Source: PVC group bacterium (GTDB taxonomy: Bacteria > Auribacterota > Erginobacteria > Erginobacterales > Erginobacteraceae). From it: a DNA stretch of 33,487 bases. This document shows positions 62 to 32,163 of this stretch, in pieces. The notes below the pieces were generated by a model. The model did no database searches and was not told the origin of the DNA. It worked only from the letters and a program-made list of their open reading frames with translations. The stretch's first letter is position 1; the number at the start of each line of letters is the position of its first letter. Location of the stretch: positions 1 through 33,487 of the forward strand of contig JAZDIV010000060.1 of assembly GCA_043804695.1 (NCBI GenBank), read 5' to 3'. Position numbers and translations under genes: made by a program.

Positions 62-86
62 TAAAATTTTCCTCCGGAAAATTTTA
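62..86 (-). promoter_or_regulatory. Start-proximal hairpin containing the Shine-Dalgarno sequence
   Basis: Minus strand TAAAATTTTCC-GGA-GGAAAATTTTA-ATG: perfect 11-bp stem abutting the ATG. Confidence 0.6.
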
Positions 87-198
87 GTCTGAATTCCTAT
101 CGGTTGAAGCAATATCTTACATTAACATATCATCCCTGTAATGAGAACCGCCGATATCATTACGATGGATTTTGCTGGTTACCGCTCACCGCCCCCGG

Positions 199-257
199 GC
201 GCTATGCGCTATGCGCCATGCCCTCTGCTTATTGCGTACCGATTACCGATTACTGAT
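199..257. repeat. Heptamer tandem arrays (GCGCTAT)x3 and (TACCGAT)x3, degenerate
   Basis: gcgctat gcgctat gcgccat at 199-219; taccgat taccgat tactgat at 237-257. Confidence 0.8.
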
Positions 258-276
258 CCCCGGCTATCCACCCTAT

Positions 277-987
277 CTATCCTTCCGTCTTCTCCTCCCG
301 TGTCACTGATGGAGGCGCATTGCTCACCAGGCTGTTCTTATGCAGCCGGGCGAAGAAAGGGCTCAGCGTCGTATTCGGCAGGACCCGCACGCCGTCGCCG
401 ATCCGGATCGCGGCCAGAGACACCCCCGATGCGAGGATGCAGTCATCGCCGATCCGGGCCAGGCCGACCCGGAACTTTCCGGCCCCCTCGTAGGCATGGG
501 TCGAGATCTTGCAGAACGCCCCGATCAGGGAATTGTCTCCGATCGAGATCAGTTCCGGGCAGAAGTGATCGAGCCAGCAGGCCTGCATGATCTCGGTGTT
601 CTTCCCGATCCGGACGCCGGCCCATCGATAGAGGCGGTTCTTCAGCCGCCCCCCCCGGAGCAGCATCGCTGAAAGCACCAGCCAGCTCAGCGGCAGCCGG
701 ATCCAGAAGGGCCGGTTCAGTGCCGTCCAGTGGATGCGGTTACTCTCGGAGAGCTTCCCCAGGCCGTCGAAGGTGTAGGAGTTCGTCCTGCCCCGGAGAA
801 AAGCCCGCAGGCTCTCACTGCCTGGCGGGGTGTCCGGGTCAAGCTCCCGGACATCGACCGGTTCCGCCGCCGAGGACCGGGCCAGCGTGATGATCCGTCC
901 TTTCTTCCGGCCCAGCCGGATGGCCCGACGGATGATCCGGGTAACGACCCTGCGTAAGGCGTCATCTATATCATGTTTATCCGTCAT
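277..987 (-). CDS. Hexapeptide-repeat (left-handed beta-helix) acyltransferase, YvoF-like
   Basis: KNRLYRWAGVRIGKN, PELISIGDNSLIG and IGDDCIL...IGDG repeats; about 80-aa extra N-terminal region. Confidence 0.8.
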   Translation of the reverse strand: MTDKHDIDDALRRVVTRIIRRAIRLGRKKGRIITLARSSAAEPVDVRELDPDTPPGSESLRAFLRGRTNSYTFDGLGKLSESNRIHWTALNRPFWIRLPLSWLVLSAMLLRGGRLKNRLYRWAGVRIGKNTEIMQACWLDHFCPELISIGDNSLIGAFCKISTHAYEGAGKFRVGLARIGDDCILASGVSLAAIRIGDGVRVLPNTTLSPFFARLHKNSLVSNAPPSVTREEKTEG

Positions 988-1023
988 TTTTCACACAATG
1001 CTCCAGTGTTCATTGATAATGAA

Positions 1024-1046
1024 ATAATCGGTGATCAGTAATCAGT
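1024..1046. repeat. Heptamer array (GTAATCA-like)x3, reverse complement of the TACCGAT family
   Basis: ataatcg gtgatca gtaatca gt. Confidence 0.65.
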
Positions 1047-1080
1047 TTGACCTGACTCGCATTAACGGATCGCTGACTAT

Positions 1081-1107
1081 TTAAAATTTTTCGAAGAAAA
1101 ATTTTAA
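1081..1107. repeat. AT-rich perfect hairpin overlapping the purH stop codon
   Basis: ttaaaatttttc-gaa-gaaaaattttaa, 12-bp stem; its arms resemble those of the 62-86 hairpin. Confidence 0.7.
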
Positions 1108-2687
1108 TGTCTAAAATGCCGGATGCCGGTGAAGACCATGGTGATCCCGTGCTCCCGCGCCACCGCGACCGACTCGCCGTCCCGGATGGAGCCCCCCGGC
1201 TGGACAATGGCCCGCACCCCGTTCTCGGCCGCCAAATCCACCACGTCCCGGAAGGGGAAGAAGGCGTCCGAGGCCATGACCGTTCCCTTGACCTCCAGCC
1301 CGGCCCGGCGGGCTTTCTCGACCGCCAGGCGGGCGGCATCGATCCGGCTCATCTGGCCGGCGCCGATCCCGACGGTGGCGGTCCCCCGCCCGAGGACGAC
1401 CGCGTTGGACCGGGTGTGCTTGCAGACCGTCCAGGCGAACGAGAGCGCGGCCCACTCGGCGGGAGACGGCGGCGACCCGGCAACCACTTTCAGGGAATCA
1501 GCGTCCCAGTGGAGCAGGTCGGTTTCCTGGACCAGCATCCCTCCATAGACGGACCGGCAGGACCGGTGAGGGGGACGGCGGCGGAGAGGCCCCGATTCCA
1601 GAACCCGCAGGTTCTTCTTCCGGGCCAGAGTTTCCAGCGCTCCCGGGGTGAAGGCGGGAGCGAGAAGCGCCTCGACGAAAGTCGAGGTCACCTCGACGGC
1701 GACCTCTTCCCCGATTTCCCGGTTGAAGGCGACCACGCTCCCGAAAGCGGATAGTGGATCAGTGGCCCGGGCCCGGCGATAACTCTCGAGCAGGGTTTCC
1801 CCGACCGTAGCCCCGCACGGGTTATTATGCTTGATGATCACGGATGCCGGGCTTTCCAGTTCCAGGACCAGGGAGAGCGCGTTCTCCAGATCGAGGATAT
1901 TGTTATAGGAGAGTTCCTTCCCCTGAAGCCGGCGGGCATTACAGATCGAACTTCCGACTTCCGGCGCCGGGCTCCTGATTCCTGACTCCTGTACATACAG
2001 TGCCGCTTCCTGGTGGCGGTTCTCCCCGTAGCGAAGCCTCTGCTTCAAAGAGCAGGCCAGCTCCAGCCGGGCAGGGAAATCTCCCGGTTTCTCCCCGGCC
2101 AGGAAAGCGGAAATCATGCCGTCATACCGGGAAGCGGTCAGGAAGGCCTTCGCCGCCAGCCGGCGCCTGGTCGCAGGCGAAACACTCCCTCCACCGTTCC
2201 TCATTTCTTCCATCACCGCGCTGTAATCGGCGGGAGCGCTGACGACCGTTACCGACCGGTAATTCTTGGCCCCCGCCCGCAGCAGGGACACGCCGCCGAT
2301 GTCGATGAACTCCACCAGGGTATCCTCATCAAACTGCCCGTTGTTCAGCTTGTCTTCGAACGGGTACAGGTTGATCGCCAGGAAATCGATCGGCTCGATG
2401 GCCGCCTTGACCAGCTCGGCCATATGTTCCGGATTATCCCGCCGCGCTAAAAGTCCCCCGTGGACTTTCGGATGGAGAGACTTCACCCGCCCGTCCAGCA
2501 TCTCCGGAAAGCCGGTATAGTCCGCCAGTCTCTTCACCTTGATCCCCTCCTCTTCCAGGGCCCGGGCGGTGCCCCCGGTCGAGATGATCTCGAAACCCAT
2601 CCCTGCCAGCGCCGTGCCCAGTTCCAGAAGCCCGGTCTTGTCGGAAACACTGATCAATGCGGTCCGCTTGAGATTATTCATACCCAT
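1104..2687 (-). CDS. purH: Bifunctional AICAR transformylase/IMP cyclohydrolase
   Basis: ALISVSDKTG, STGGT, GRVKSLHP, IDIGG, LRYGEN, KHNNPCG, GQMSR, SDAFFPF and C-terminal RHFRH. Confidence 0.98.
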   Translation of the reverse strand: MGMNNLKRTALISVSDKTGLLELGTALAGMGFEIISTGGTARALEEEGIKVKRLADYTGFPEMLDGRVKSLHPKVHGGLLARRDNPEHMAELVKAAIEPIDFLAINLYPFEDKLNNGQFDEDTLVEFIDIGGVSLLRAGAKNYRSVTVVSAPADYSAVMEEMRNGGGSVSPATRRRLAAKAFLTASRYDGMISAFLAGEKPGDFPARLELACSLKQRLRYGENRHQEAALYVQESGIRSPAPEVGSSICNARRLQGKELSYNNILDLENALSLVLELESPASVIIKHNNPCGATVGETLLESYRRARATDPLSAFGSVVAFNREIGEEVAVEVTSTFVEALLAPAFTPGALETLARKKNLRVLESGPLRRRPPHRSCRSVYGGMLVQETDLLHWDADSLKVVAGSPPSPAEWAALSFAWTVCKHTRSNAVVLGRGTATVGIGAGQMSRIDAARLAVEKARRAGLEVKGTVMASDAFFPFRDVVDLAAENGVRAIVQPGGSIRDGESVAVAREHGITMVFTGIRHFRH

Positions 2688-2719
2688 AGATTGCTTCGTC
2701 GCTCCGTTCCTCGCAATGA
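2688..2719. repeat. Half REP-like element (GATTGCTTC...CTCGCAATGA family) abutting the first purH ATG
   Basis: agattgcttcgtcgctccgttcctcgcaatga; same family as the right arm at 20797-20855. Confidence 0.75.
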
Positions 2720-2842
2720 TGGGGTTAAATGACGCAATTTATGAGACGGCACACTAGCTTGATCCCTTTGATTTATCAAAAAAGTCACCCCGATAAGTCC
2801 GGAACGGCTCTTTTAGGGAGTCATAGAAAGAATTGTCTCATC

Positions 2843-2933
2843 GGGCATTAGATATTTTACATTCTTTCGGGTTTCGCTCCGCCCCGATGCAATCGGGGTC
2901 ATTCGGGATTCGTCATTTTTCGATGTTCGATGT
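2843..2933. repeat. Degenerate short-period repeat arm with an embedded CCCCGAT-gca-ATCGGGG hairpin
   Basis: tttcgggtttcg...tcattcgggattcgtcatttttcgatgttcgatg; hairpin at 2882-2898. Confidence 0.5.
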
Positions 2934-2946
2934 CCATAGTTGTATA

Positions 2947-3648
2947 TTATACGTCTCTAATCACCTTCAGATACTGCTCAAAGATCCTCACCCTCTCCGG
3001 CGTCCCGATATCGTAAAACTTCCGTTCGACGGGCCAGGCACCCAGTTCCCCCGCTTCGATCAGCCGGGGATACAGGTCCTCCTCCAAGGAGAAAACGTCC
3101 TCCGGAGGGAAGTAATCCGCGATGGCCTTCCGTGCCATCCGGACACCGGCATCGGCGTGCGTCAGTGAAGCCGCCGGGCTATCCGCCGCGCAAGCCGTGA
3201 TTCTCCCCCCCTCCACCCGGAGGTTGGGAGGCAGTCCGGGGGCTTCCCCCGGGAAGACGCTTACCATCATCAAGGCCTTCGTCTTCTCGAACGCGACCCG
3301 GAGTTGCCGGTAATCGGCCGGCAGAAGCGTGTCCCCGTTGAGGAGAAAAAACGCGTCTTCGAGCTTCGGCCAGGCCCGCTTGAGTGCGCCCCCCGTCCCC
3401 AGGGGCCTGTCCTCAAGCGAATAATCGATCCGCAGGCCCAGACGATCCCCGTCTCCAAAATAGGATTCGATCATCTCGCCCCGGTAACCGGTACAGAGCA
3501 GTATCCCGGTAACCCCGGTCCGGCGGAGATAGACGATAAGATGTTCCAGAAACGGGCGTCCCCCGATCTCGACCATCCCTTTGGGAACACTATCCGTCAC
3601 CGGCCGCAGCCTGGTCCCTCGCCCCCCGGTTACAATTACCGCTTGCAT
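2947..3648 (-). CDS. Sugar-phosphate nucleotidyltransferase (NTP_transferase; HddC/mannose-1-phosphate guanylyltransferase-like)
   Basis: GGRGTRL, PKGMVEIGGRPFLEH, EDRPLGTGGA, LNGDT, FYDIGTPE. Confidence 0.9.
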   Translation of the reverse strand: MQAVIVTGGRGTRLRPVTDSVPKGMVEIGGRPFLEHLIVYLRRTGVTGILLCTGYRGEMIESYFGDGDRLGLRIDYSLEDRPLGTGGALKRAWPKLEDAFFLLNGDTLLPADYRQLRVAFEKTKALMMVSVFPGEAPGLPPNLRVEGGRITACAADSPAASLTHADAGVRMARKAIADYFPPEDVFSLEEDLYPRLIEAGELGAWPVERKFYDIGTPERVRIFEQYLKVIRDV

Positions 3649-3650
3649 TA

Positions 3651-3677
3651 TAAGTTAGCGTCTCCGGCGCTAACTTA
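3651..3677 (-). promoter_or_regulatory. Start-proximal TTAGC...GCTAA hairpin
   Basis: Minus strand TAAGTTAGCG-CCGGAGA-CGCTAACTTA-TA-ATG; GGAG lies in the loop. Confidence 0.65.
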
Positions 3678-3947
3678 GTGAAAATGCATTGAAGCTAACG
3701 CCACTTGATAAAGTTCTTAGATTATACAATAATTATTTGAACTATTCTATTCTTAAACTCCGAAGGGGAAGGAATAGGTTAACGCCATTTCAACCTGAAG
3801 TCAAAAAGATATCTCAGACAACGGACGATCAACTTGAGATCGGGAAGCCGGTCCGGAAGAAGCGGCTGAAGAAAAAAGAATAAACGTCCAACACCAAATG
3901 AATCAGGGAAGGGTGACAGTCAATAATCCAGGGCGTCAGATTTGTTT

Positions 3948-4370: not shown

Positions 4371-4404
4371 CAGATACGATATTCGGAATAGGACTTAACG
4401 CAGG

Positions 4405-5343: not shown

Positions 5344-5368
5344 CTTTGTCTTCTTCGTTCATTATTCC

Positions 5369-6799: not shown

Positions 6800-6805
6800 G
6801 GCTCT

Positions 6806-6834: not shown

Positions 6835-6835
6835 C

Positions 6836-8170
6836 TTAAGATTTTCGAGATATGTTCAGCACGGCATCGAGCACCGGGCCGACCGATAACGCAATGTAAA
6901 ACACCAGGAGGGGGAAAAAGTGCACATATTCTCTCTTGATGGTTTGATGCATCATTTTTTGAAGGTCTTTCGGTATCGAATAAAAAACAAATACCAGAAT
7001 GATGAAATTAAGCATAATAATCGCCAGAAGATACCCGAACTTTTTAAGAGATTTCCAGCACAGGAGAAGCACTATTAAAAACAGCGGTCCTAACCCACCC
7101 CAGGCTTCTTTCTCCAGAAACTTTTGCCAGATGTAACGGAGCACACTTTCAAGCTTCCACCATGATAACCTGCACTGAATTATACCTTCCGACGAGTCTT
7201 TAAAGTTCCCGAAGAACCGGTTCGAATACCCCAGCATAACTGAGGAATATACGCTCCAACTCCCCCCCAGGATAAGTGTTGGAAGAATAAAATAAATAAG
7301 TAATCCAACTCTTTTTTTGCGGAGAAGATACACGAATAAAACAATCACATCAGCTCCCGTCAGAAACCAGCCTTCCGACTTGGTCCAGACGGACAGGCCG
7401 CATAACAGGCCTGATAAGATGAGCCATGATTTCTTACCCTCCCGGAAAAAAAGACAGAGGTAGAGCGTTCCGCTCACGTAGTAAAGCGCGCAGGTAAGAT
7501 CCGCACAGGCCCGGTAACTCTGCTCGAACAGATAGGGGAGAGTGGCCATTAAAAGCGTGAAGAGGAGAGCGGATACCGCAGACAGGGTTCTGCGGAGATA
7601 GGTGAAGAAGATAATGATCAGGCAGATATAGTTTAAGGTGAACGGTATCTTGGCCATCGCCTCCGAGTGCAGAAACATGAGGGCGGTCGAGAGCGGAACA
7701 TGGAGGGGATACTGGGGATGCGACCCGAATCTCACGGCGGACAAGCTTCCGGTGGCGGCGATCGCCTTCCCCTTGGCCAGCCAGCTTCCGATTGAATCAG
7801 GGTAGTGGGCGGGCCAATACATATTTATTATCCCGGAAAAAACAATGACCAGCGCAAGGATGATGAACAAAACCAGAGCGACGGGATGCCTCCTCGAACG
7901 GGGGTGCCCGGTCTCGGCCATTCCCAGCCTTTTCCGGTTGACGATGAAAAGTACCAGGGAGATCCCCAGATAGGCAGCGCCCAGGGAACTCGGGTTCAAA
8001 GTTACGCCGGCCGCCCCGAGCAGAAAGCCGGCGAAGGTCACGACTCCGGCGCCCAGAGCATAGGCCAGGGCGGCACGCTCCAGCAGGCCGATTCTTCCAT
8101 CCTTAAAAAAGAGGGTGATATTCCACCCGACCCAGAACATACATCCGAGCTGAAAAATAATCCAGATCAT
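6836..8170 (-). CDS. GT-C fold (PMT/ArnT-like) membrane glycosyltransferase
   Basis: Many TM segments; DSIGSWLAKGK, HPQYPLHVP, ADL and WTKSEG motifs. Confidence 0.8.
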   Translation of the reverse strand: MIWIIFQLGCMFWVGWNITLFFKDGRIGLLERAALAYALGAGVVTFAGFLLGAAGVTLNPSSLGAAYLGISLVLFIVNRKRLGMAETGHPRSRRHPVALVLFIILALVIVFSGIINMYWPAHYPDSIGSWLAKGKAIAATGSLSAVRFGSHPQYPLHVPLSTALMFLHSEAMAKIPFTLNYICLIIIFFTYLRRTLSAVSALLFTLLMATLPYLFEQSYRACADLTCALYYVSGTLYLCLFFREGKKSWLILSGLLCGLSVWTKSEGWFLTGADVIVLFVYLLRKKRVGLLIYFILPTLILGGSWSVYSSVMLGYSNRFFGNFKDSSEGIIQCRLSWWKLESVLRYIWQKFLEKEAWGGLGPLFLIVLLLCWKSLKKFGYLLAIIMLNFIILVFVFYSIPKDLQKMMHQTIKREYVHFFPLLVFYIALSVGPVLDAVLNISRKS

Positions 8171-8637: not shown

Positions 8638-8673
8638 TATTTAATAAATCAGCTCGCTTCGCTCGTAACTTTT

Positions 8674-8764
8674 GCCACTAAGACACCAAGACACCAAGAA
8701 AAAACCAAATAAGATGAGTTTTACTCTTTTTATTCTATTCTTGGTGCCTTTGTGCCTTGGTGGC
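8674..8764. repeat. GCCACTAAGACACCAAG...CTTGGTGGC inverted-repeat element, copy 1
   Basis: Arms near-identical to 22151-22250; AT-rich unique core. Confidence 0.85.
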
Positions 8765-17281: not shown

Positions 17282-17406
17282 ATATCAGGAGACCAGGGGA
17301 TCAGCAGGAGGGGCATCAGAGGATCAGGGACCAGGTAGGAGGCTGCCCGCGCCTGATAACCTGGTATCCTGATACTCTTCCCACTGGTCCTCTGATTTCC
17401 TGATAT
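17282..17406. repeat. Long imperfect inverted repeat built from ~8-nt ATCAGG/ACCAGG units
   Basis: Left arm atatcaggagaccaggggatcag...; the right arm reverse-complements to atatcaggaaatcagaggaccag... Confidence 0.8.
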
Positions 17407-17465: not shown

Positions 17466-20400
17466 TTAGTGATACTCAATCCGCACCTTGTCCAGTAGAA
17501 CACCCAGTTCACGGCTATCCGTGATCTCGTAATAATGAGAGGGCTGCCAGGCGGGAACCGTCAGTTCCAGAGTTGCCAGACGGGAGGGCCGGTCGGATAC
17601 GGGGATCGAACACCGGTACGTCCCTCCCTCCTCTTCCAGCGGGAACGTCTCCAGTTTCCGGCCGTCGATGGAGACGGACAGTTTACGGGAATCGGCGGGA
17701 ACGGAGGCAGGAGGGCCGGCCAGGATCTCCAGGGAAAGTGCGATCTTTTCTCCCCTCCGGCTGAAGAGCGGGACCTCCAGGGACGCCGTCCCGGCTGTCC
17801 ACCGGGCCAGCTCTTTCCCCTGAAAAAGTTCGGGATCATAGAACCCGTCCTCGATGAATGCCCAGTCCGCCTCTCCCCCCACGTCAATCACAAGATCTTC
17901 GCCGGGGCGCGCCGGAACAGGCCGGGTCCGGAAAAATGCGGGGCGGCCGGCGGCGACCGACTCGACTCTCAATTCGGTGACCGGGACCTGTACCTGGCCG
18001 GGATCAAGGAGCAGCCGCTGGACCCCACCTTTGACATTATCCTTTAAGATCCCGCCGTCAACAAAGATCCGGTACGGACCCCCCTCGCCCGGGGCCCCCG
18101 GCGGGGAGCGGATCTCGAAGGCGGCAAAGCAATCTTCCTTGACCGACGTCTCCAGAAGCACCCGCGTGAGCCATCTTCTCATGCTGACCGCTTTCAGGGC
18201 GAGGGCTCCCCACCAGTCGTCATCGGGATAGGGAACCTGATATCCATCCTTTGGGTAGGCCAACAGCTCCAGCCTGCTCTCGACGGAAGAGACGGCGTCG
18301 TCGGGAACGACGAACCTGACTTCTTCCCATCCGCTCACCCGGGAGAGGTCGAGATCGGCGATCTCTTTTCCGTCCAGACTGATTCTCAGGCCGACCGGGC
18401 GGGGGATTTTTTGACCGTTTCTGAGATCGAGCTGACCGATAATCGAGGTATCGGGGATAACAACCGTGGGGACCAGTATCTCAGCGGGCTTCTCCCAGAG
18501 GATCCGGCGGTAATGCCCATCCTGCCAGTGTAAACGCTCGAACCCACTGATCAGGAAGTAATCGGGTATCAGGGCACGATCCCCGAAAGTGATCGTATAG
18601 GGCGCCCAGACGCTTTGAATCGAAAAATCCATCTGCCGCGGGAGGGGCTGATCGGACCGGATGGCAAATACGGATCGGGGGGAATGAAGAAGGCGGGCGG
18701 GCAGTTCGATATAATTGATACTATCCCGGAGGGCACTGTCCAGACGGGAGCCGTCGAGCAATACCTCAACCCGGGAGCGGTCGCCGTAATCGGCCCAGAT
18801 CGTCCGGGCGTTCAACGTCATCAGGTAATCTTCCCCCTCCTTCAGATCGGTGATGACCGTCTCCACCTCTTTCCGGTTCCATGGTTCTATCCGGTAGAGA
18901 GTACAGACCGGCTGGCCGAACTGGTCGGCCAGGCAGAAGTCATCCCCGCGCAGGGTTCCGACCGGAGTAACATCAAAGTACCTGCGAAGGATGGGTATGT
19001 ATTTACCCCCTTCCCGCCGTCCGCCGCCGGCGTCGAAGAGGAAGAGGGGGACGGAACGATCGAGCATCCGCCGGCAGCCTTCCCGGAGTTCAACCCCCAC
19101 CCGCTCGATATCGAAAACCCGGATACTGTGGCTCCCGCTGAAGAGGGATATGTACTGGGAGACCGGCTTGGTGGCGAAAATTACCGAACCCGGCGGGGCC
19201 AATCGATCGATCGCCTGCCCGAATTGCCTGGCCTGGGGAAGCTGGAAGAGGCAGCGCGTGGAAAACCACCCCGGTCCGAACTTGACCAGAACGAGGGCAA
19301 AGACCGCGCAGGCCAGGATCAGGTAGCGGGAGGGTGTCTTCCAGCCGCTGCTTTCGCGGGCGGCGATCAGCCAGAGACCGACCGTGAAGGCCAGGACGAA
19401 GAAATCAATTACTCCCAGCCCGTACTTTTGACTGAGGTGGAGGCGGAGCAGGACATCCGCCCCGATCAGAACCGGGCCCGACCAGAGCACCCATTTCCGG
19501 GCGCGTGGGTCGAGGACTTTGCCGACCCCCGCGACCGCCAGCAGAATTAAGAACGGCTGGGCGATCGTCATGTAGCGGACCATCAGGTGAACCCACATGC
19601 TGTAGAAGAGGATAAAGATGAGCGGTATCCCCAGGCAGAGATACTTGATCTCCGGAGATTTCCACCCGGAGATCAGCCCCAGTATAATCAGCGCGGTCAA
19701 AGAGACCCCGTAGAGTTTTCCGAAAAATTTCAAGGTGTCGGGACCGGTGGTCGCGAGAAAACCTATCCAGAGAGGAGCGGGGGATTCTACGTCCTTCACT
19801 TTCAACACCGCCCTCTGGGTAATCTCCGGACGGGGGGGATGAAGAGGATGTCCTTCGGTGGTATAGTTCTGGAGAAAGATCGGGACCAGGCCAACGACGA
19901 AAAAGAAACCGGCCAGCACAACGACCGCCACCCGTCTCGACCAGCGCGCGGGCCCCCGGAGTCGGACCAGGAGATACAGCCCGGCCGGCACACCAACCAG
20001 GATATTCGGCAGCCTGGTCGATCCCGAATACCCCAGGCAGAAAGCTCCCAGCACCAGGGAGAACCATCTGACCCCGGGCCACCGGCTGAGGGCCCGCACC
20101 CCCCAGTAAAGCCCGGCGATGAGGGCGGTCAGCGCCAGGAGGTCCCGGGAAGGCTTGATAGTCAGACCCCAGACCTTTTCGATCAGAATGATGAAGAGAA
20201 ACGATCCGAGCAGGGCCAGAAAGATCCCGTGTCTTCTTTGAGTGAAGATCATCTCCGCCAGTTTGAAGTAAAACCAGAGAAAAACTATCAGGACAAAAAT
20301 ATTGGCGAAATAGACCGCGTCATCGCCGAACACCCTGATGACGCCGGCTAAAAATAAGGGAAAGCCGATTTCGTACTTGCAATACATCCGGCCGTTCTTG

Positions 20401-20645
20401 ACCAGATAATTGCCCTGAAGCACAAAGTGGGACTCGCCGGGGGCCCAGTCGCCCTTGAACCAGTTATAGACGGGGAAATCGCTGTAAAACTTACCCTCCG
20501 CCAGATGGCGGGCAAAATGGACCAGACCGAAAGGATCGGAGCCGAGCGCGGCATAGTAGCCGTCCAGACCGGAGAAGACGACCAGGATTAAAAACAGACC
20601 GAAGAGGGCGTAGACGAAGAGCTTCCCTTTTTGACTCTCTTCCAT
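17466..20645 (-). CDS. GT-C glycosyltransferase paralog C (start moved to ATG 20645, MEESQK)
   Basis: GSDPFG, KYEIGFPLFL, SRDL, TRLPN, VRYM; C-terminal DSRELG. The ORF-track start at 20717 lies inside a repeat element. Confidence 0.82.
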   Translation of the reverse strand: MEESQKGKLFVYALFGLFLILVVFSGLDGYYAALGSDPFGLVHFARHLAEGKFYSDFPVYNWFKGDWAPGESHFVLQGNYLVKNGRMYCKYEIGFPLFLAGVIRVFGDDAVYFANIFVLIVFLWFYFKLAEMIFTQRRHGIFLALLGSFLFIILIEKVWGLTIKPSRDLLALTALIAGLYWGVRALSRWPGVRWFSLVLGAFCLGYSGSTRLPNILVGVPAGLYLLVRLRGPARWSRRVAVVVLAGFFFVVGLVPIFLQNYTTEGHPLHPPRPEITQRAVLKVKDVESPAPLWIGFLATTGPDTLKFFGKLYGVSLTALIILGLISGWKSPEIKYLCLGIPLIFILFYSMWVHLMVRYMTIAQPFLILLAVAGVGKVLDPRARKWVLWSGPVLIGADVLLRLHLSQKYGLGVIDFFVLAFTVGLWLIAARESSGWKTPSRYLILACAVFALVLVKFGPGWFSTRCLFQLPQARQFGQAIDRLAPPGSVIFATKPVSQYISLFSGSHSIRVFDIERVGVELREGCRRMLDRSVPLFLFDAGGGRREGGKYIPILRRYFDVTPVGTLRGDDFCLADQFGQPVCTLYRIEPWNRKEVETVITDLKEGEDYLMTLNARTIWADYGDRSRVEVLLDGSRLDSALRDSINYIELPARLLHSPRSVFAIRSDQPLPRQMDFSIQSVWAPYTITFGDRALIPDYFLISGFERLHWQDGHYRRILWEKPAEILVPTVVIPDTSIIGQLDLRNGQKIPRPVGLRISLDGKEIADLDLSRVSGWEEVRFVVPDDAVSSVESRLELLAYPKDGYQVPYPDDDWWGALALKAVSMRRWLTRVLLETSVKEDCFAAFEIRSPPGAPGEGGPYRIFVDGGILKDNVKGGVQRLLLDPGQVQVPVTELRVESVAAGRPAFFRTRPVPARPGEDLVIDVGGEADWAFIEDGFYDPELFQGKELARWTAGTASLEVPLFSRRGEKIALSLEILAGPPASVPADSRKLSVSIDGRKLETFPLEEEGGTYRCSIPVSDRPSRLATLELTVPAWQPSHYYEITDSRELGVLLDKVRIEYH

Positions 20646-20675
20646 TTTCTGTGGATATATACCGGTATTCAAAAC

Positions 20676-20895
20676 AGGTTCTCTTCTATTTTGTGTGGGT
20701 AATAGATAATAGGTCATTGCGAGGCCGCAGGCCGAAGCAATCTCACTATGTCTATCTTATTACAAACATAATAAAAAATGTTTCTCTCTTTAGTAAGAGA
20801 TTGCTTCGGCGCTTATTGCCCCGAATTCTTCGGGGCAAACGCTTCTCGCAATGACATTGATTGGACATTTACCCACACAAAATGAAGGAGAACCT
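20676..20895. mobile_element. MITE-like element with 27-bp imperfect terminal inverted repeats and nested palindromes
   Basis: aggttctcttctattttgtgtgggtaa (20676-20702) versus ttacccacacaaaatgaaggagaacct (20869-20895), 3 mismatches; no transposase inside. Confidence 0.7.
20713..20855. repeat. REP-like doublet GTCATTGCGAG...GAAGCAATCTC / GAGATTGCTTC...CTCGCAATGAC
   Basis: Arms at 20713-20744 and 20797-20855; the right arm carries hairpin ttgccccgaa-ttc-ttcggggcaa (20816-20838). Confidence 0.85.
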
Positions 20896-20901: not shown

Positions 20902-20928
20902 TAAATTAGCGGCGAAGCCGCTAATTTA
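20902..20928. repeat. TTAGCGGC-GAA-GCCGCTAA hairpin
   Basis: 12-bp perfect stem; 20903-20927 is the exact reverse complement of 31155-31179. Confidence 0.85.
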
Positions 20929-20943: not shown

Positions 20944-20994
20944 TAGCCCGGATTAGCCGGGGAAATTTATAATTTTCCTGGATAATCCGGGCTA
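20944..20994. repeat. CCCGGATTA...TAATCCGGG imperfect hairpin overlapping the GT2 stop codon
   Basis: 22-bp arms with 3 mismatches; related single arms (cccggattatccatg) near 26909 and 32298. Confidence 0.7.
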
Positions 20995-21997: not shown

Positions 21998-22031
21998 CCT
22001 CAGCCAAAGGCTGATCAGCCTTTGGCTGAGG
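21998..22031. repeat. Perfect 34-bp palindrome
   Basis: cctcagccaaaggctga|tcagcctttggctgagg; each half is itself a hairpin. Confidence 0.9.
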
Positions 22032-22066
22032 AATTTGTTTGTTATTTGGTAACACTTCAGCGCTTC

Positions 22067-22132
22067 CCTCGTTCCCACGCTCTGCGTGGGAACGCAGTGT
22101 TATTCGTTACCACCCAGAGCGTGGTAACTAGG
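22067..22132. repeat. REP-like inverted doublet CGTTCCCACGC-TCT-GCGTGGGAACG
   Basis: cctcgttcccacgctctgcgtgggaacg and the inverted copy cgttaccacccagagcgtggtaactagg. Confidence 0.8.
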
Positions 22133-22150
22133 AAACTCGCTCTTATTTTT

Positions 22151-22250
22151 GCCACTAAGACACCAAGACACGAAGGAAAATTAAAAAAGTTTCTATTACA
22201 ACCCTTCCTATCATTTTTTAGCTTTCTTGGTGCCTTTGTGCCTTGGTGGC
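22151..22250. repeat. GCCACTAAGACACCAAG...CTTGGTGGC inverted-repeat element, copy 2
   Basis: Right arm ttcttggtgcctttgtgccttggtggc is identical to copy 1; the left arm differs by 1 nt. Confidence 0.85.
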
Positions 22251-22269: not shown

Positions 22270-23706
22270 TTAACTTGAAAAGAATCCTATTCGGGAGACG
22301 ATTGAACGGGCGCTGGCGATCACGCTTTTAAAATCATCCCAGTTCTTGATGCTGAGCGCGGTCTGGACAAAGAATGACGGGCGGAAATAAAACTCCTTGT
22401 AAGCCCTGACCCGGGCTTTCTCGGCCGCGTCCAGCGGAAACTCGGGAGTCTCGATCATCCCCAGGCAGGAAGAGAAATCTTCCCATTCACTGTACCGGAT
22501 CCAGCCTTTCTCGGTGGTGGTCCGGAAAAGCTCGGTTCCCGGGTGGGGGATGGCGACGGCAAACTGAGCGCTGCCGGGTTTCAGCTTCTTGGCGAATTCG
22601 ATTGTCTCATGGACCGTCTCCCCGGTCTCACCCGGGATCCCGAAGAGGAAGAACGCCTGGGTCCGGATTCCCGCCTTCCGGGCCAGACAGAAGGTCTCCA
22701 TCACCTTCTCCGGCGTGATCCCTTTCTTCATCAGCTTCAGCATCCGAGGCGATCCCGACTCGACGCCGAACCGGATGTAGCGGCAGCCGGCTTTCTTCAT
22801 CGCCCGCAAGACTTCCTCGTCCATGCTGTCCACCCGGCACTGGGATATCCACTCAAACTTCAATCCGCGTTCGACAATGAGCCGGCAAATCTCAAGCATC
22901 CGGTCGCGGTCCAAACCCATGGAGTCGTCATCGAAATAGACCTCGTCGATCCCGTACTTCTTCACGCACTCTTCAAGCTCATCCACGACGTTCTTCGCCG
23001 ACCGGGACCGGAACTCGTGCCCGTAAAGAGTATTGGGCCAGAGGCAATAGGTGCAGTGAAAGGGACAGCCCCGGGAAGTCACGACCGTGGTCGGCCGTTT
23101 CCCCCGGAAGGTCCCCTGGCGATAGAACGGGCTTGCCACCAGGTCGCGGGCCGGGAAAGGCAGTTCATCGAGGTTCCCGATCAACGGGCGGTCGGGGTTG
23201 ACCATGATGTCGCCGGCGGATCGCCAGGTGAGCCCCTCCACCCCCGACCAGTCCTTGCCGTCGGCGAGGGCTTTCACCAGATCGCGCACCGTGTAATCGA
23301 ACTCGCCCCGGCAGATCGCGTCCACTGAAGGGTTTTGCTCCATGATCTCTTTGTGGTAAACGGTCGGATGGGAGCCGACCAGGACCGTTCTCGTTTCCGG
23401 CAGGATTCGCTTGACGGCGGCCGCCGACTGGAGGTCGTAGTTGATGGATGGGGTGGAACACTCCAGAACCACGACGTCGGGCCCGATCTCTTTGACCCGA
23501 CGGGCAAACTCCTCGATATCCAGCTCCTCCAGGATGGCGTCCAGGAAGGCAACCTCGTAGCCGCTCACCCGGACGATCGCCGCCAGGTAAGCCAGGTAGA
23601 TCGGATATTCGATAAATTTATCGCTCCGCTTGTGGGGCCAGCGCACGTCGGAGCGGGCCCCGAATCCTTCACCCGGCCAGGGAGGGTTTGTTATTATTAC
23701 TTTCAT
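22270..23706 (-). CDS. B12-binding domain radical SAM protein (HpnJ-like N-terminus); start moved to ATG 23706
   Basis: MKVIITNPPW...YPIYLAY, VLVGSHPT, RGEFD, SRGCPFHCTYC (CxxxCxxC), FGVESGS, PHPGT. The ORF-track extension translates a repeat. Confidence 0.92.
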   Translation of the reverse strand: MKVIITNPPWPGEGFGARSDVRWPHKRSDKFIEYPIYLAYLAAIVRVSGYEVAFLDAILEELDIEEFARRVKEIGPDVVVLECSTPSINYDLQSAAAVKRILPETRTVLVGSHPTVYHKEIMEQNPSVDAICRGEFDYTVRDLVKALADGKDWSGVEGLTWRSAGDIMVNPDRPLIGNLDELPFPARDLVASPFYRQGTFRGKRPTTVVTSRGCPFHCTYCLWPNTLYGHEFRSRSAKNVVDELEECVKKYGIDEVYFDDDSMGLDRDRMLEICRLIVERGLKFEWISQCRVDSMDEEVLRAMKKAGCRYIRFGVESGSPRMLKLMKKGITPEKVMETFCLARKAGIRTQAFFLFGIPGETGETVHETIEFAKKLKPGSAQFAVAIPHPGTELFRTTTEKGWIRYSEWEDFSSCLGMIETPEFPLDAAEKARVRAYKEFYFRPSFFVQTALSIKNWDDFKSVIASARSIVSRIGFFSS

Positions 23707-23763
23707 GATGCTGTTAATATACCCTTGATGTCTTGAACAGGTTATTAAAATCCTTAGTAATTT

Positions 23764-23850
23764 AAAATATCGAATAACGAATGTCGAATATCGAATCATG
23801 AAGTTTTGACTTCGACATTCGATATTCTGCGGTTCGATATTCGATATTTT
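23764..23850. repeat. Inverted repeat built of heptamers (CGAATAT)n / (ATATTCG)n
   Basis: aaaatatcgaataacgaatgtcgaatatcgaatcatgaagt-tttg-acttcgacattcgatattctgcggttcgatattcgatatttt. Confidence 0.85.
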
Positions 23851-23860
23851 CCTTTTTTAC

Positions 23861-25057: not shown

Positions 25058-25059
25058 TA

Positions 25060-25232: not shown

Positions 25233-25290
25233 TTCTGTTTCGGGATTGCAATAATCGGAAAAATCCGATTATTGCAATCCCGAAACAGAA
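25233..25290. repeat. Perfect 27-bp inverted repeat (4-nt loop) including the 3' end of the TPR/SGNH gene
   Basis: ttctgtttcgggattgcaataatcgga-aaaa-tccgattattgcaatcccgaaacagaa. Confidence 0.9.
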
Positions 25291-26852
25291 AAATACTCCC
25301 TGAATAAAACCCGGACTATATTCTCGGCCAGCAACCTGTTACCCTCTCGCGTGCAGTGGCCGAAGTCAATTGCAAACTTATCTTTAAATAAGCTGGAATA
25401 ATCCGTACGGTTCAACGCCTCTCTAAAGACGGCTTCATTATCCACAAAAATGATGTTATCCTGAGAACCGAGCATTTTTTTCAGGGGACCGATACTTCTG
25501 ACCGGATACTGAACGCTCACCAGCTGAATGCCTCGCTGATCCAGAATTGCTTTCATCCGGCTATAGTTCCGGGAGGTACCCCGGTTATACGTGCTCAGGA
25601 TGAGGCTTCGGGCTTTTTGAAAATACTCCCTGGCTTTTTCCGGTTCCCCCAATTTTTGATATAACTGGCCCATCTCCTTACAGGCCAGATATGAGAAGGG
25701 AAAGCGTTCTATCACCTTTTGATAGACCTCCAGGGCCGCCTGATCATTCCCCTGTTTTTGATGACACAACCCGAGAATGCCATACGCCCACCGGTTATCC
25801 GGATTGATTTCAATCGCCTTCTCGGCTGCCGCTTGCGACTCGGGGAAATTCTTAAACTTCCAGTAACACCAGGCCAAGGCCGTTAACGCCTCATCGTTTA
25901 ACGGATTTAATTCCAGGGCCTTCTGTAACTTCTTCGCCGCGGAACCGTATGAGCGTTTTGACAGGGAAGAAAGTCCCGACACCGTCCAGGCTTCATCGCT
26001 GGAAGGATTTATCGCCAGGGCCTTCAGGCAGTAATCCAACGTCATGGAGTGACTTTGCTGGTTCAGGTAATATCGGGCCGCTCCGATATTCGCCTTTTCG
26101 CTTCGAGGGTCACGTTTAAGAGCCCGGTTAAACATCACCAGAGCTTCTTCATACTGGTTCCGGTCGAGATACAATCTCCCCAATTCAATGTACGGTTTGG
26201 AATCCTCCGGATATTTCCTCAGTTCAGCTCGAAGATTCGCCTCGGTAGTATAATCGTATTCGCACGCTGTGATGAGGTCTCCTTTCGAGGTTTCCGGCAC
26301 GTCCTCCGAAGACAGCGGTTCAAGAAGCCCCGTCTCTCTCAACGTGATCAACCCGTTATCCCATATATAGCGGGCCGCTTTCCAGATTCTCAAATTTCCG
26401 AGAAAACGCTCAAGCTCCCCCGCGTCGGCATCGGTATCGTTATAGAACCCCGGCTTGTTACCCATTCCGTCATTTATGCCCATCATGGCGATAACCATGT
26501 CCGGTTCGTATTGATCAAGCCAGCACTCCAACATCTTCAGTATATAGGCAGTGCTGCAGCCCGGTTTTCCTTGATTGATGACCGTAAATTCCCTGAACGG
26601 CTCTTTCTCATTTAAAATCTTCTCCAGCTGCCGGGGATAGCTGGAGTAATTGTTGCCGCAATAGGTCGTCGATTCCCCCACACACATAATCCGGAATTCG
26701 CTTTTCCCGGCCAGACGGGCTTGATTTGCCCGATCCCGCCGATCCAATACAATAAAACCTCCCAGGCGCAGGCCGATCTCAATAATCAACAACGTAAAAA
26801 CCAGGCTGCCAATGACCAAACCTATCTTCTGTCCGGCGGATGTCTTGGCCAT
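25269..26852 (-). CDS. Membrane-anchored SGNH/GDSL-like protein with inserted TPR repeats
   Basis: N-terminal TM (EIGLR); block I VGESTT, II NQGKPG, III MMGIND; several TPRs; then block V DFGHCT..GN. Confidence 0.85.
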   Translation of the reverse strand: MAKTSAGQKIGLVIGSLVFTLLIIEIGLRLGGFIVLDRRDRANQARLAGKSEFRIMCVGESTTYCGNNYSSYPRQLEKILNEKEPFREFTVINQGKPGCSTAYILKMLECWLDQYEPDMVIAMMGINDGMGNKPGFYNDTDADAGELERFLGNLRIWKAARYIWDNGLITLRETGLLEPLSSEDVPETSKGDLITACEYDYTTEANLRAELRKYPEDSKPYIELGRLYLDRNQYEEALVMFNRALKRDPRSEKANIGAARYYLNQQSHSMTLDYCLKALAINPSSDEAWTVSGLSSLSKRSYGSAAKKLQKALELNPLNDEALTALAWCYWKFKNFPESQAAAEKAIEINPDNRWAYGILGLCHQKQGNDQAALEVYQKVIERFPFSYLACKEMGQLYQKLGEPEKAREYFQKARSLILSTYNRGTSRNYSRMKAILDQRGIQLVSVQYPVRSIGPLKKMLGSQDNIIFVDNEAVFREALNRTDYSSLFKDKFAIDFGHCTREGNRLLAENIVRVLFREYFSVSGLQ

Positions 26853-26904
26853 AACATATTTCCCCGGGGGGGGTTCAGTAAGGTCCGATCACCTCCCTCC
26901 TCCC

Positions 26905-30920: not shown

Positions 30921-30921
30921 G

Positions 30922-30952
30922 TATTAATTAGCGCCTTCGGCGCTACTTAATA
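30922..30952 (-). promoter_or_regulatory. Start-proximal TAGCGCC-GAA-GGCGCTA hairpin
   Basis: 14-bp stem with one mismatch, ending 1 nt from the ATG. Confidence 0.65.
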
Positions 30953-30955
30953 GTG

Positions 30956-30980
30956 GACCCCGATTGATTCAATCGGGGTC
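30956..30980. repeat. GACCCCGATTGA-t-TCAATCGGGGTC palindrome
   Basis: Same CCCCGA...TCGGGG family as 2882-2898, 20816-20838 and 31121-31138. Confidence 0.8.
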
Positions 30981-31154
30981 TGTTAGTTAACTAAAAAATT
31001 TTCATCGAGGCAACATTATAAAATAGCCTTATAACCTCAGCCAACATGTGCCCCAAAGAATATAATTTATCTATCGGCTTCAGATATTCCATTCTTTTAT
31101 TCAAAATATCACTATCGGGATCCCGACGGATGTCGGGAAAATTCAGAAATAGAA

Positions 31155-31179
31155 AAATTAGCGGCTTCGCCGCTAATTT
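31155..31179. repeat. TTAGCGGC-TTC-GCCGCTAA hairpin
   Basis: Exact inverted copy of 20903-20927. Confidence 0.85.
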
Positions 31180-31243
31180 GATTCTACTTACATTTTCCTG
31201 AACAGATTCAATCAAAATAAAACAAGGATTTAGCCCGGCGAAA

Positions 31244-31278
31244 TACTGATTACCGATTACCGATTACCGATCACTGTT
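31244..31278. repeat. Heptamer tandem array (TACCGAT)x5, degenerate
   Basis: tactgat taccgat taccgat taccgat cactgtt, abutting the acyltransferase stop codon. Confidence 0.85.
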
Positions 31279-32019
31279 TTAAGGTTTTCTCTCCAGCCGG
31301 GAACGGACGTCACGGGCCGGAACGCCGACGGCCACCGCGTATTCCCGGATATCACGATGAACCACCGCCCCGGCTCCAATGACTGCGCCCTTCCCGATCG
31401 TGACCCCTCCCAGAATAACGGCATGGGTCCCTATCCAGACATCTTCGCCGATCACTATCCGGCTGGGAGAACGGTCCTGAAACCGCATCGGCCGTGTCGT
31501 ATCTTCAAAGGTATGGGTCCCGCTGATGATCTCCACCTGGTTGGCGATCAGTGTGTTGTCGCCGATCCGGATATCTCCGCAACCGTAGATAAACGATCCG
31601 GACCCGATATTGACCCTGTCTCCGATCGCCACGCAGCCCTTCTGGGTCCGGATGGTGACCAGCCGGGAGATATGACTATCGGCGCCGACCGTGATTGTCT
31701 CGGCCCCGGCGCCGATATCAAAAAAGCTCCCCTCTCCGATAAAGACCCGGTCTCCCACCAGGAGGCGCCCCGGATTGAAGAACCGGATATTCTTCTCGAA
31801 AAAACATTTCTTCCCCAATCCCCCCAGGAGCAACCGGTAAAACCATCCCCTCAACATACATCCCCCGACGGTGGGAAAGCAGGAAAAGATCGTCAGCAGC
31901 ATTCCCTGCCAGAAAAACCGAACCAGGGAACTGCTTCCGTAAAGCCGTTCCCGGTATTGCCGGAAACTCTCCTTGAAGCCGGCGGACGGTATCGTCCCCT
32001 CACCATCGTAACCAGTCAT
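31279..32019 (-). CDS. Hexapeptide-repeat sugar O-acyltransferase
   Basis: VGDRVFIG, IGDRVNIG, IGDNTLIA, IGEDVWIG, GVTIGKGAVIGAGAVV, VGVPAR. Confidence 0.92.
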   Translation of the reverse strand: MTGYDGEGTIPSAGFKESFRQYRERLYGSSSLVRFFWQGMLLTIFSCFPTVGGCMLRGWFYRLLLGGLGKKCFFEKNIRFFNPGRLLVGDRVFIGEGSFFDIGAGAETITVGADSHISRLVTIRTQKGCVAIGDRVNIGSGSFIYGCGDIRIGDNTLIANQVEIISGTHTFEDTTRPMRFQDRSPSRIVIGEDVWIGTHAVILGGVTIGKGAVIGAGAVVHRDIREYAVAVGVPARDVRSRLERKP

Positions 32020-32046
32020 ATAAGGTAGCTCACTTCGTTCGCAACC

Positions 32047-32163
32047 GGTTAGGGTTACGGTGACGAGGCCCGTTTCGTCTTCCGGTTACGGTTACGTGCG
32101 CCGGGTGTGGCCGCCGTCACCCTTACCTTCACCGATACGGGCTTCGTTACCCTTACCCTTACC
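32047..32163. repeat. Long imperfect hairpin built of hexamers (GGTTAC/GGTAAG) in the operon leader
   Basis: Outer 31-nt arms pair with 6 mismatches; inner ggttacggttacg / cgtcacccttacc arms. Confidence 0.8.

Follow-up and report, generated by a model that had tools for sequence, protein, structure and literature searches.

Repeats at gene junctions in an Erginobacteraceae genome, probably including gene-less forms of hairpin-bounded small-gene cassettes

What are the short palindromic and periodic sequences that fill the spaces between the genes of a bacterial glycan locus, and are they there on account of the glycan genes? This question is raised by a stretch of 33,487 nucleotides, contig JAZDIV010000060.1 of the PVC group bacterium assembly GCA_043804695.1 (Erginobacteraceae), which we refer to at its full length as the window. 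The window is one contig (C60) of a 155-contig, 2.97-Mb genome, here called G000, with a G+C content of 57.8% and a completeness of 88%, and 19 of its 20 genes, complete or end-cut, lie on the minus strand. A first-pass annotation, made from the letters alone, had listed at least eight sequence families in the gaps between co-oriented genes and had read them as one family of small non-autonomous elements that targets gene boundaries in glycan loci. We arrive at another answer, to which we give a probability of roughly 0.6: the junction elements are a local sample of a genome-wide intergenic repeat load, and their main class is the gene-less form of a hairpin-bounded small-gene cassette.

The elements themselves are real and repeated. 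Gap reading, Tandem Repeats Finder and an inverted-repeat scan placed every one of them at, or a few bases from, the positions first given for it, and a comparison of each with the whole genome (blastn-short) returned between 8 and 109 matches, self included, for all 21 queries. As the first-pass annotation had said, most junctions carry one: at 11 of the 19 junctions between called genes, sequence recurs in three or more other intergenic regions. Repeats are found in 11 of the 12 window gaps of at least 100 bp, and the left-most gap (61-276), outside this count, also has elements. The genome as a whole looks alike. With a gene set from a rough, home-made caller based on open reading frames (ORFs; 2257 genes, 81% coding), whose window genes agree with our manual gene model, 1021 of the 1688 intergenic regions of at least 25 bp contain sequence common to at least three others, repeats make up 31% of intergenic bases and about half of all gene junctions carry them. 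Tandem arrays are intergenic in 438 of 704 cases at period 7 and in 283 of 400 at period 8. Copy counts and intergenic excess thus support the description of small, gene-less, multi-copy elements at gene boundaries, and in repeat content the window is ordinary for this genome.

The nature of the main class is indicated by copies of the same arms that hold a gene. The four-helix-bundle profile TIGR02436 has nine matches in G000, six of them full-length (one broken by three stops) and three partial within longer ORFs. All six full-length genes sit between inverted tandem arrays, with arms of GGGGAAT on contig C101, of the TAATCAG-type unit of window positions 1024-1046 on C27 (gene at 7665-7988), of GTGTAAA on C143, of AAATCCT on C83 and of GAATGAC on C120; on C121 (4859-5441) the arms are the hexamer and CCCGTTTCG arms of the window's hexamer inverted repeat (IR), with the PF05635 gene in the loop. 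The only GxxExxY gene (sole TIGR04256 match, C127:42541-42885) lies between inverted GCCAC arms, and the only small stand-alone GIY-YIG gene (C27:25980-26195) between inverted GTCATTGCGA...GCAATCT units, the arms of the GTCATTGCGAG element. Pfam confirms the cargo as PF05635, PF13366 (PD-(D/E)XK) and PF01541. Four arm families of the window, those of the hexamer IR, the GCCAC element, the TAATCAG heptamer and GTCATTGCGAG, are in this way found around genes elsewhere in G000. The link to four-helix-bundle and GxxExxY genes, which had been mentioned for other genomes, holds true here, and the filled GIY-YIG copy that had been proposed for a search exists.

The eight cargo genes have further features in common. 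Each is co-oriented with its neighbors (seven with both neighbors called, one with one), and their G+C content is 0.38-0.46, compared to 0.578 for the genome. A codon-usage caller missed six of the eight, which fits a foreign or atypical composition. Twenty additional four-helix-bundle loci, ten in each of the relatives G001 and G025, gave a similar picture: at 19 of them the inverted flanks scored above every shuffle, with period 7 in most and a different unit in nearly all, so that inverted arms accompany 25 of 26 four-helix-bundle loci overall in the three genomes. A sequence search of the PDB with the GxxExxY protein gave no match at E values up to 1.

Gene-less copies have the same arms as the filled ones, and both kinds lie between a stop codon and the next start codon in one orientation to transcription. 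Across the genome there are 176 inverted array pairs within 1.5 kb, in 57 unit families, and where the gap is under 50 bp inverted pairs outnumber direct ones by 108 to 22. The 139 pairs with a gap of at most 200 bp are distributed over co-directional (107), convergent (11) and divergent (6) gene pairs, contig edges (8) and called genes (7). The hexamer IR is represented by 35 aligned copies of 79-93% identity, in which 96.5% of cells are paired over the 31 pairs of the stem (shifted controls, 23-56%). These copies usually stand between a TTAGC-type hairpin and a second conserved module, which marks the spacers as mosaics. The GCCAC family has 34 copies by pattern and a conserved core; its alignment was out of register (only 11 predicted pairs) and was left out of the covariation analysis. 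The genome also contains 254 GTCATTGCGAG units, 247 of them outside called genes, which form 80 convergent pairs and 1 divergent pair at favored spacings of 21 and 40 nt, and the sole pair with a 326-nt gap is the GIY-YIG cassette. The CGTTCCCACG hairpins comprise 21 units, none in a gene, with six adjacent pairs, 4 of them at 12-nt spacing.

Where a gap separates co-directional genes, the order of the arms in the mRNA is constant. For seven unit families the array on the stop side is opposite in sense to the one on the start side (for example, AAUCAGU on the stop side and ACUGAUU on the start side, or CACCAAGA and UCUUGGUG, respectively), and the split is also seen in arrays of five units beyond those of the GCCAC element and the hexamer IR. 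As whole elements, GCCAC copies are oriented 22:4 and hexamer IR copies 24:5 relative to transcription (binomial p ~5e-4 each), and this fixed polarity of gene-less copies at co-oriented junctions is the one in which filled copies carry their cargo gene in sense. The stop-side arm starts a median of 10-22 nt past the stop codon in the two commonest families.

Occupancy of orthologous junctions differs between relatives (G001-G008), where a site may be empty, filled or held by another family. The gap between purH and the NTP-transferase gene measures 259 bp with three elements in G000, 152 bp with an octamer IR in G001 and 20 bp in G006. Between the GT2 and radical-SAM genes, G000 has 336 bp with a palindrome, a REPIN-like doublet and a GCCAC element, G001 has 143 bp with the orthologous GCCAC element only, and G006 has 70 bp with nothing. 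Upstream of gene 31279-32019 there is a hexamer IR in G000, an octamer IR in G001 and no element in G006. Filled sites vary as well. At the C121 junction none of eight relatives has a four-helix-bundle gene; seven have a different array or hairpin and G004 has none. The GxxExxY cassette is common to G000 and G001, and G004 has an 83-bp arm-less gap instead; the C27 four-helix-bundle cassette is common to G000, G001 and G003, and in G004 its place is taken by a 126-bp gap with decayed arms of the TAATCAG-type heptamer. Copy families are lineage-restricted: there are 29 occurrences of the hexamer IR in G000, 11 in G001, which is of the same genus, and 2-3 in each of two other family members, and it was found in none of the 27 other relatives searched (4 of 31 genomes positive, G000 included).

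We interpret these observations with the following model. In the main class, which takes in the GCCAC elements, the hexamer and octamer IRs, the heptamer hairpin and the lone heptamer arrays, two inverted arms of 6-8-nt tandem units would enclose either a short core (empty form) or a promoterless AT-rich gene of ~120 residues (filled form) for a four-helix-bundle (PF05635/TIGR02436) or GxxExxY PD-(D/E)XK-fold (PF13366/TIGR04256) protein; the GTCATTGCGAG doublets would follow a like design with a small GIY-YIG gene as cargo. Such cassettes may be selfish elements that multiply by inserting copies of themselves in operon spacers. Because nuclease folds occur in two of the three cargo types, gene conversion of a homing-like kind between arm arrays suggests itself, and we offer copying of this kind as the most economical guess for their mobility, which is itself inferred; the empty copies could be its relics or its targets. 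In the mRNA the arms are predicted to fold into long stems 10-20 nt past the upstream stop codon, where they may act like REP hairpins, by protecting 3' ends or partially uncoupling neighboring cistrons. Any such action would be incidental and would not have been shaped for the glycan genes.

Several points weigh against this model. Neither movement nor polymorphism within a population was seen, and no target-site duplication, excision or insertion boundary could be defined; nor was any recombinase, transposase or reverse transcriptase tied to the cassettes. In the 88%-complete assembly neither the octamer IR at 17282-17406 nor the TCGAATA hairpin at 23764-23850 has a filled copy. An alignment of 34 GCCAC copies, judged by eye, revealed no clear likeness between their core and the ends of the GxxExxY gene, and descent of gene-less GCCAC elements by internal deletion is therefore not supported. 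Compensatory change in the hexamer IR is weak, with double changes at 4 pairs versus 1-3 in shifted controls. Distances to start codons are approximate because the ORF caller is home-made. Moreover, some elements show a fixation that the first-pass annotation had named as contrary to its own reading: the heptamers after purH and the AT/TTAGC hairpins in front of two start codons stay at orthologous junctions from one genus to another, a pattern that suits ancient and perhaps functional sequence no less than mobility.

A last difficulty concerns the intervening sequence (IVS) of 23S rRNA. The Coxiella burnetii IVS, according to the accessible part of PMC4990558, has a 28-bp terminal stem, an S23p (PF05635) ORF in the loop and a low G+C content, and is excised by RNase III; the same text takes the sporadic distribution of IVSs to suggest horizontal spread. 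As far as this description goes, our elements are like an IVS in their terminal inverted repeats that join in a long stem, the small PF05635 gene in the loop, its sense orientation in the host transcript, the low G+C content and the sporadic occurrence. They are unlike it in lying in mRNA spacers, in arms made of tandem 6-8-nt units, in being mostly gene-less and in carrying PD-(D/E)XK and GIY-YIG cargo as well. No insertion in 23S helix 25 or 45 was found; all copies examined lie between protein-coding genes, rRNA genes being outside the survey. No window copy has an ORF in its loop, the PF05635 ORF being confined to filled copies elsewhere in G000, and Rfam at gathering thresholds gave no match in the window. 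RNase III, in addition, appears to be missing. The PF14622 profile has no match in G000 (88% complete), PF00636 has none in nine genomes of the family and TIGR02191 has none throughout the order (14 genomes, several with a completeness of 94-97%). Of 17 members of the phylum that belong to other orders, 15 match TIGR02191, as do 9 of 14 control genomes. This absence counts against the analogy, and IVS-like processing cannot simply be carried over. IVS-style excision is unlikely in this lineage, and any role of the stems in RNA is more likely to be, by analogy with REP sequences, that of 3'-end protectors or partial barriers.

Whether the loss of RNase III is connected with the stems is a wider matter. 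Four-helix-bundle matches per genome have a median of 7 in the order versus 3 outside it. The density of stems of length at least 14 was 0-18 per 100 kb in six genomes with RNase III, 7-45 in six without and 25-45 in G000, ranges that overlap and come from 40-60-kb stretches of related genomes, three of the RNase III-positive samples being very AT-rich. G025 has RNase III and yet many armed four-helix-bundle cassettes. A bolder proposal, which we regard as doubtful though worth stating, would treat the four-helix-bundle, GxxExxY and small GIY-YIG genes as three alternative cargoes of a single, hitherto undescribed class of selfish cassette, hairpin-bounded and transcription-polar, in which nucleases drive copying from one arm array to another. 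Most operon spacers of the lineage, even leaders and start-codon contexts, would then consist of gene-less relics of these cassettes, and the lack of RNase III throughout the order would be connected with the load of long double-stranded RNA stems, either by permitting it or because the enzyme was selected against. If the cassette model holds, PF05635/TIGR02436 and PF13366/TIGR04256, very large families of unexplained role, would be tied, together with the equally unexplained tandem heptamers of many bacterial genomes, to one mobile design related to the rRNA IVS. G000 offers a compact test bed, with filled and empty copies, three cargo types, eight relatives that differ by junction turnover and an order apparently without RNase III. 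For annotation, the repeats probably create spurious start codons and break assemblies at contig ends, and they should not be taken as locus-specific regulators of glycan genes.

Among other explanations, the tandem units could be protein-binding arrays, bound by IHF/HU-type proteins, by the four-helix-bundle protein or by an RNA-binding regulator, that form a global regulatory network. Units of 6-8 nt that are strictly polar to transcription would suit this, as would the finding that nearly every four-helix-bundle gene examined has its own unit, and paired sets of five tandem heptanucleotides in Geobacter metallireducens are taken for global-regulator sites in the accessible part of PMC2700814. 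We consider it unlikely, given 57 inverted-pair unit families against only 6 full-length four-helix-bundle genes in G000 and an occupancy of the same junction that differs between close relatives and leaves no stable regulon visible. Position is the strength of the view that the elements are ordinary intrinsic terminators or REP-type mRNA stabilizers that arose in place, alike by convergent selection and with no mobile past: the stop-side arms lie close behind the upstream stop codon, G001 and G006 retain the AT hairpin after purH and the adjoining heptamers at the corresponding junction, and a true T-run follows one TTAGC hairpin (31179-31155, minus strand). This hairpin and three small stems are, however, the only four hairpins in the intergenic gaps that fit the intrinsic terminator pattern on the transcribed strand, and no tandem-arm element matches a G+C-rich stem followed by a U-run on the minus strand. 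Independent origin is also a poor fit to 34-35 copies of 79-93% identity over 90-130 bp, cores included, to identical arm families that enclose genes and to close relatives that differ in the family held at a junction; this view is unlikely.

On a further view, all elements might be REP/REPIN sequences mobilized by the RAYT (Y1 transposase) genes of the genome. PF01797 has 6 matches, one of which (C62:5765-6076) is flanked by its own palindromic repeats, and both CGTTCCCACG and GTCATTGCGAG are palindromic multi-copy units in inverted doublets, the former in 4 doublets at 12-nt spacing and never in genes, the latter almost always convergent. Against this, the surroundings of the 6 RAYT matches are free of CGTTCCCACG hairpins to a distance of 1.5 kb, though in an 88%-complete assembly a cognate RAYT could be missing; the RAYT-flanking repeats differ by eye from the window families, and the tandem-arm and GTCATTGCGAG elements partner other cargo genes. 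RAYT mobilization of the whole set is very unlikely. The original reading, one non-autonomous family that targets glycan gene boundaries and shuffles or tunes them, has in its favor that the window is a glycan locus, that the variable part of this locus differs between relatives and that inverted array pairs are about twice as dense in the window (9.0 per 100 kb) as in the genome on average (4.7). The density amounts to three pairs versus 1.6 expected, which is no significant excess (Poisson estimate ~0.2). At the 195 junctions that adjoin GT2, GT1 or PMT_2 genes, 85 carry repeats and 11 inverted-array elements, and at the 1907 others 936 and 96, respectively (Fisher p 0.15 for repeats and 0.73 for inverted-array elements). 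The genes behind these counts are 35 GT2, 35 GT1 and 56 PMT_2 matches; seven of these fell below the cut-off and were dropped, and of the other 119 it was possible to place 113 on called genes. Frequencies that do not differ significantly contradict glycan targeting, the filled cassettes stand between efflux-pump and other housekeeping genes, and the elements fall into several unrelated classes, which makes the original reading highly improbable.

The elements can be set beside several known systems. REP, BIME and REPIN sequences are short extragenic palindromes that occur in hundreds of copies, in inverted doublets and spacer mosaics, together with RAYT transposases, and REPs located after stop codons stabilize the upstream mRNA. 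Short palindromes, inverted doublets, mosaic spacers and post-stop placement recur here; in contrast to REP/REPIN sequences, the cargo-linked families are not beside RAYT genes, have arms of tandem units and hold their partner genes inside the hairpin loop. Bacterial miniature inverted-repeat transposable elements (MITEs), such as the enterobacterial RU/ERIC repeats, have terminal inverted repeats and longer, gene-bearing relatives. The elements described here resemble them in size (90-130 bp), inverted ends, tens of copies, intergenic location and longer gene-bearing copies, and differ in that the longer copies encode no transposase, no target-site duplication is defined and the copies are oriented according to transcription. 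The hexamer IR is flanked by other repeat modules. Cyanobacterial STRR sequences are a further kind of intergenic tandem heptamer repeat. To our knowledge, hairpin arms and abundant gene-less copies are not features of homing endonuclease genes. The free-standing ones, such as mobE of phage T4 in the accessible part of PMC2790892, are like our cargo genes in being small nuclease-fold genes that occur sporadically between conserved genes; the cargo genes are unlike them, as far as that text goes, in encoding bare catalytic domains of ~95-130 residues, putative nucleases by fold, and in their hairpin arms and many gene-less copies.

Tandem heptamers have been described as TAACTGA in Beggiatoaceae, cyanobacteria and Bacteroidetes (PMC4679880), as GGGNATC in Xanthomonas and Nostoc (PMC4692102) and as the paired sets of G. 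metallireducens (PMC2700814), each source being accessible in part. Within that limit, the arrays of G000 agree with them in 7-nt units of 2-6 copies, intergenic position between co-oriented neighbors, polarity and closeness to start or stop codons, and the TTACTGA/TTACCGA unit found here is one base from TAACTGA of PMC4679880. The repeats in the accessible parts of these three papers are mainly direct and have no link to cargo genes, whereas ours are mostly inverted pairs that match cassette arms; the terms 'four helix' and 'intervening' do not occur in the accessible text of PMC4679880, nor 'four-helix' and 'GIY-YIG' in that of PMC2700814. Our literature searches, which lay largely outside subscription journals, found no paper that links such arms to four-helix-bundle, GxxExxY or GIY-YIG genes.

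Within the window the elements belong to at least four classes with different partner genes, not to one family. Inverted arms of 6-8-nt tandem units form the first (the two GCCAC elements, the hexamer IR, the octamer IR, the heptamer hairpin and the lone heptamer arrays), GTCATTGCGAG doublets the second, the REPIN-like CGTTCCCACG doublet with simple CCCCGA hairpins the third, and TTAGC/AT hairpins that abut start codons and have a Shine-Dalgarno-like loop the fourth. The architecture that the first-pass annotation had given to all of them, a repeat arm, an AT-rich core and an inverted arm, is present in both GCCAC copies, the 20713-20855 doublet and the heptamer hairpin. It does not extend to the octamer and hexamer IRs, whose cores are G+C-rich, or to the TTAGC, CCCCGA and CGTTCCCACG elements, which are plain palindromes, and a single AT-rich-core design for every family is thereby ruled out. 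Inverted arms join in one long stem in the two GCCAC elements, the octamer IR, the hexamer IR, the heptamer hairpin and the 20713-20855 doublet; positions 199-257, 31244-31278 and 2688-2719 are single arms or units. Two of these had been listed as heptamer arms: 199-257 consists of two unrelated direct heptamer arrays, and 31244-31278 is one direct array, neither with an excess of folding. The intergenic, polar 7-nt arrays at 199-221, 237-257 and 31244-31278 are direct tandem heptamers of the TAACTGA/STRR type. Folding was scored on the transcribed (minus) strand against 200 shuffles, and the GCCAC elements, octamer and hexamer IRs, heptamer hairpin, GTCATTGCGAG doublet, 21998-22031 palindrome and CGTTCCCACG doublet gave z-scores of -3.9 to -9.5, compared to -2.9 to -4.6 for the TTAGC hairpins.

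Table 1 Repeat elements of the window, by position. z, folding z-score (ranges in brackets are those to which a score refers); a few element boundaries may be 1-2 bases off.
Element	Positions	Strand	Remarks
AT hairpin, CCGGAGG loop	62-86	-	borders on start codon 58-60 of the truncated left-most gene, with its end immediately 5' of it; z -2.7; same place in G001 (both copies) and G006
Direct GCGCTAT array, 3.3 copies	199-221		without inverted partner; z -0.3 (199-257); not at orthologous G001 junction
Direct TACCGAT array, 3 copies	237-257	-	~20 nt past stop of hexapeptide-transferase gene 277-987; TACCGAT also at orthologous G001 site
TAATCAG/TGATCGG heptamer arm with decayed partner arm	1024-1078	-	z -2.7; full hairpin at orthologous G001 junction; arrays of TAATCAG-type unit in G006
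Perfect 12-bp AT hairpin	1081-1107	-	over purH stop codon; kept after purH in G001
Lone GTCATTGCGAG-type unit	2688-2719	-	109 genome matches; z +0.4
CCCCGA hairpin	2881-2899		z -1.0 (2870-2915)
TTAGC hairpin, GGAGA loop	3652-3676	-	few nt before nucleotidyl-transferase start codon (3648); z -2.9; kept in G001
GCCAC element, CACCAAGA-type octamer arms, conserved AT-rich core	8674-8764	-	z -8.5
Octamer-type IR, 47-nt arms, G+C-rich core	17282-17406	-	z -4.9; 20 genome matches
Convergent GTCATTGCGAG doublet, AT-rich core	20713-20855		z -9.5 (20715-20860); CCCCGA hairpin 20818-20836 nested in right unit
TTAGC hairpin	20903-20927		away from any start codon
24-nt IR, CCCGGATTAGCCGGG type	20944-20994		extends to GT2 gene stop; 9 genome matches
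Perfect 34-nt palindrome	21998-22031		z -6.8; 69 genome matches; not at orthologous G001 junction
CGTTCCCACG doublet, two 25-nt hairpins in inverted order, REPIN-like	22064-22135		z -5.8; not at G001 junction
GCCAC element, copy two	22151-22250	-	z -3.9; orthologous copy in G001, none in G006
Hairpin with TCGAATA heptamer arms	23764-23850	-	z -7.5 (23760-23855); different array (CCTTCGTG) at G001 junction
TTAGC hairpin, GAAGGGAG loop	25060-25088	-	before GT4 gene start codon (25057); z -4.6
TTAGC hairpin	30922-30952	-	abuts start codon (30920) of radical-SAM/LPG-synthase gene; z -4.6
CCCCGA hairpin, 11-bp stem	30956-30980		z -6.3 (30950-30985); 65 genome matches
CCCGA hairpin	31121-31138		z -2.5 (31110-31145)
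TTAGC hairpin, then minus-strand T-run	31155-31179	-	~100 nt past stop of gene 31279-32019; z -4.5
Direct TACCGAT array, 4 copies	31244-31278	-	directly after stop of hexapeptide-transferase gene 31279-32019; z +0.4; not at orthologous G001/G006 sites
Hexamer IR, GGTTAC/GGTAAG units and CCCGTTTCG motif	32047-32163	-	z -4.0

The TTAGC hairpins are a numerous group. A pattern search found 138 in the genome, 132 of them outside genes, and 70 of the 132 end within 30 nt of a called start codon, 24 at exactly 6 nt. As judged by eye, the mRNA carries the purine side (GGAGG or GAAGG) in all but one of the 70, and the stereotyped module is AAATTAGCGCCGGAGGCGCTAATTTATA-ATG. At two genes, an AT hairpin whose loop resembles a Shine-Dalgarno sequence stands directly before the AUG and is kept across genera. 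From sequence, the TTAGC/AT hairpins are best read as a separate class, putative translation-initiation leaders that are repeated through the genome, and the copy at 31155-31179 is the sole element that reads as an ordinary intrinsic terminator. In all eight relatives (loci L102-L109), too, the start codon of an RND-pump gene is immediately preceded by an AT hairpin made up of a T-run, a CCAAAGG-type loop and an A-run. In G000 (C121:5420-5445) the four-helix-bundle cassette abuts the RND-pump ATG, and the AT hairpin of the relatives is gone.

The arrays at 237-257 and 1024-1046 are complementary to each other and bracket the hexapeptide-transferase gene 277-987, as they do in G001. Some 20 housekeeping genes elsewhere, among them nadA, hisF and argJ, are bracketed in a similar manner by complementary arrays, most simply because elements of the same family occupy both neighboring junctions. 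The CCCCGA hairpin at 20818-20836 lies in the loop of a GTCATTGCGAG unit, and equal nesting was seen in C27 and L011; part of the CCCCGA 'family' is accordingly the variable inner stem of the GTCATTGCGAG unit. Beside the GxxExxY cassette, C127:42930-43120 has a REPIN-like doublet between two copies of the right GCCAC arm plus a 15-nt tail, which looks like a nested insertion or duplication. A perfect palindrome of ~27 bp that the first-pass annotation had not listed, at 25235-25290 (inner 12-bp arms at 25248-25275 in the inverted-repeat scan), spans the stop codon of the TPR/GDSL gene 25269-26852.

Repeats also reach into gene starts and contig ends. The longest-ORF starts of genes 17466-20717 and 22270-23799 fall in repeats, the former with its ATG in the CGCAATGAC motif at 20713-20723 and the latter in the left heptamer arm of 23764-23850, which overlaps the longest-ORF start of this radical-SAM gene (23799); an alternative in-frame ATG is located at 23706. 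Ortholog alignments for the two genes begin 6-53 residues further in, and the longest-ORF starts are therefore probably over-extended by the repeats. Many G000 contigs start or end in these sequences (for example, C101:1-100, C126:54-255 and C104:358-557). The repeats probably break the assembly, and their copy numbers are then lower bounds.

The genes of the window include, by Pfam, five PMT_2-type glycosyltransferases, a GT2 and a GT4 glycosyltransferase, two B12-binding radical-SAM proteins, two hexapeptide acyltransferases, a nucleotidyl transferase and purH. With 56 PMT_2, 35 GT2 and 35 GT1 matches, the glycan-gene load of G000 is unusually heavy for 3 Mb. By PurH, the nearest named relative is an 'uncultured bacterium' metagenome-assembled genome at 73% identity and the remaining matches are ~50% identical; the lineage is therefore poorly known. 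G001, with a stated contamination of 8%, has two diverged copies of the window's locus on separate contigs (C33 and C41 of that genome), which are a strain mixture or a duplication.

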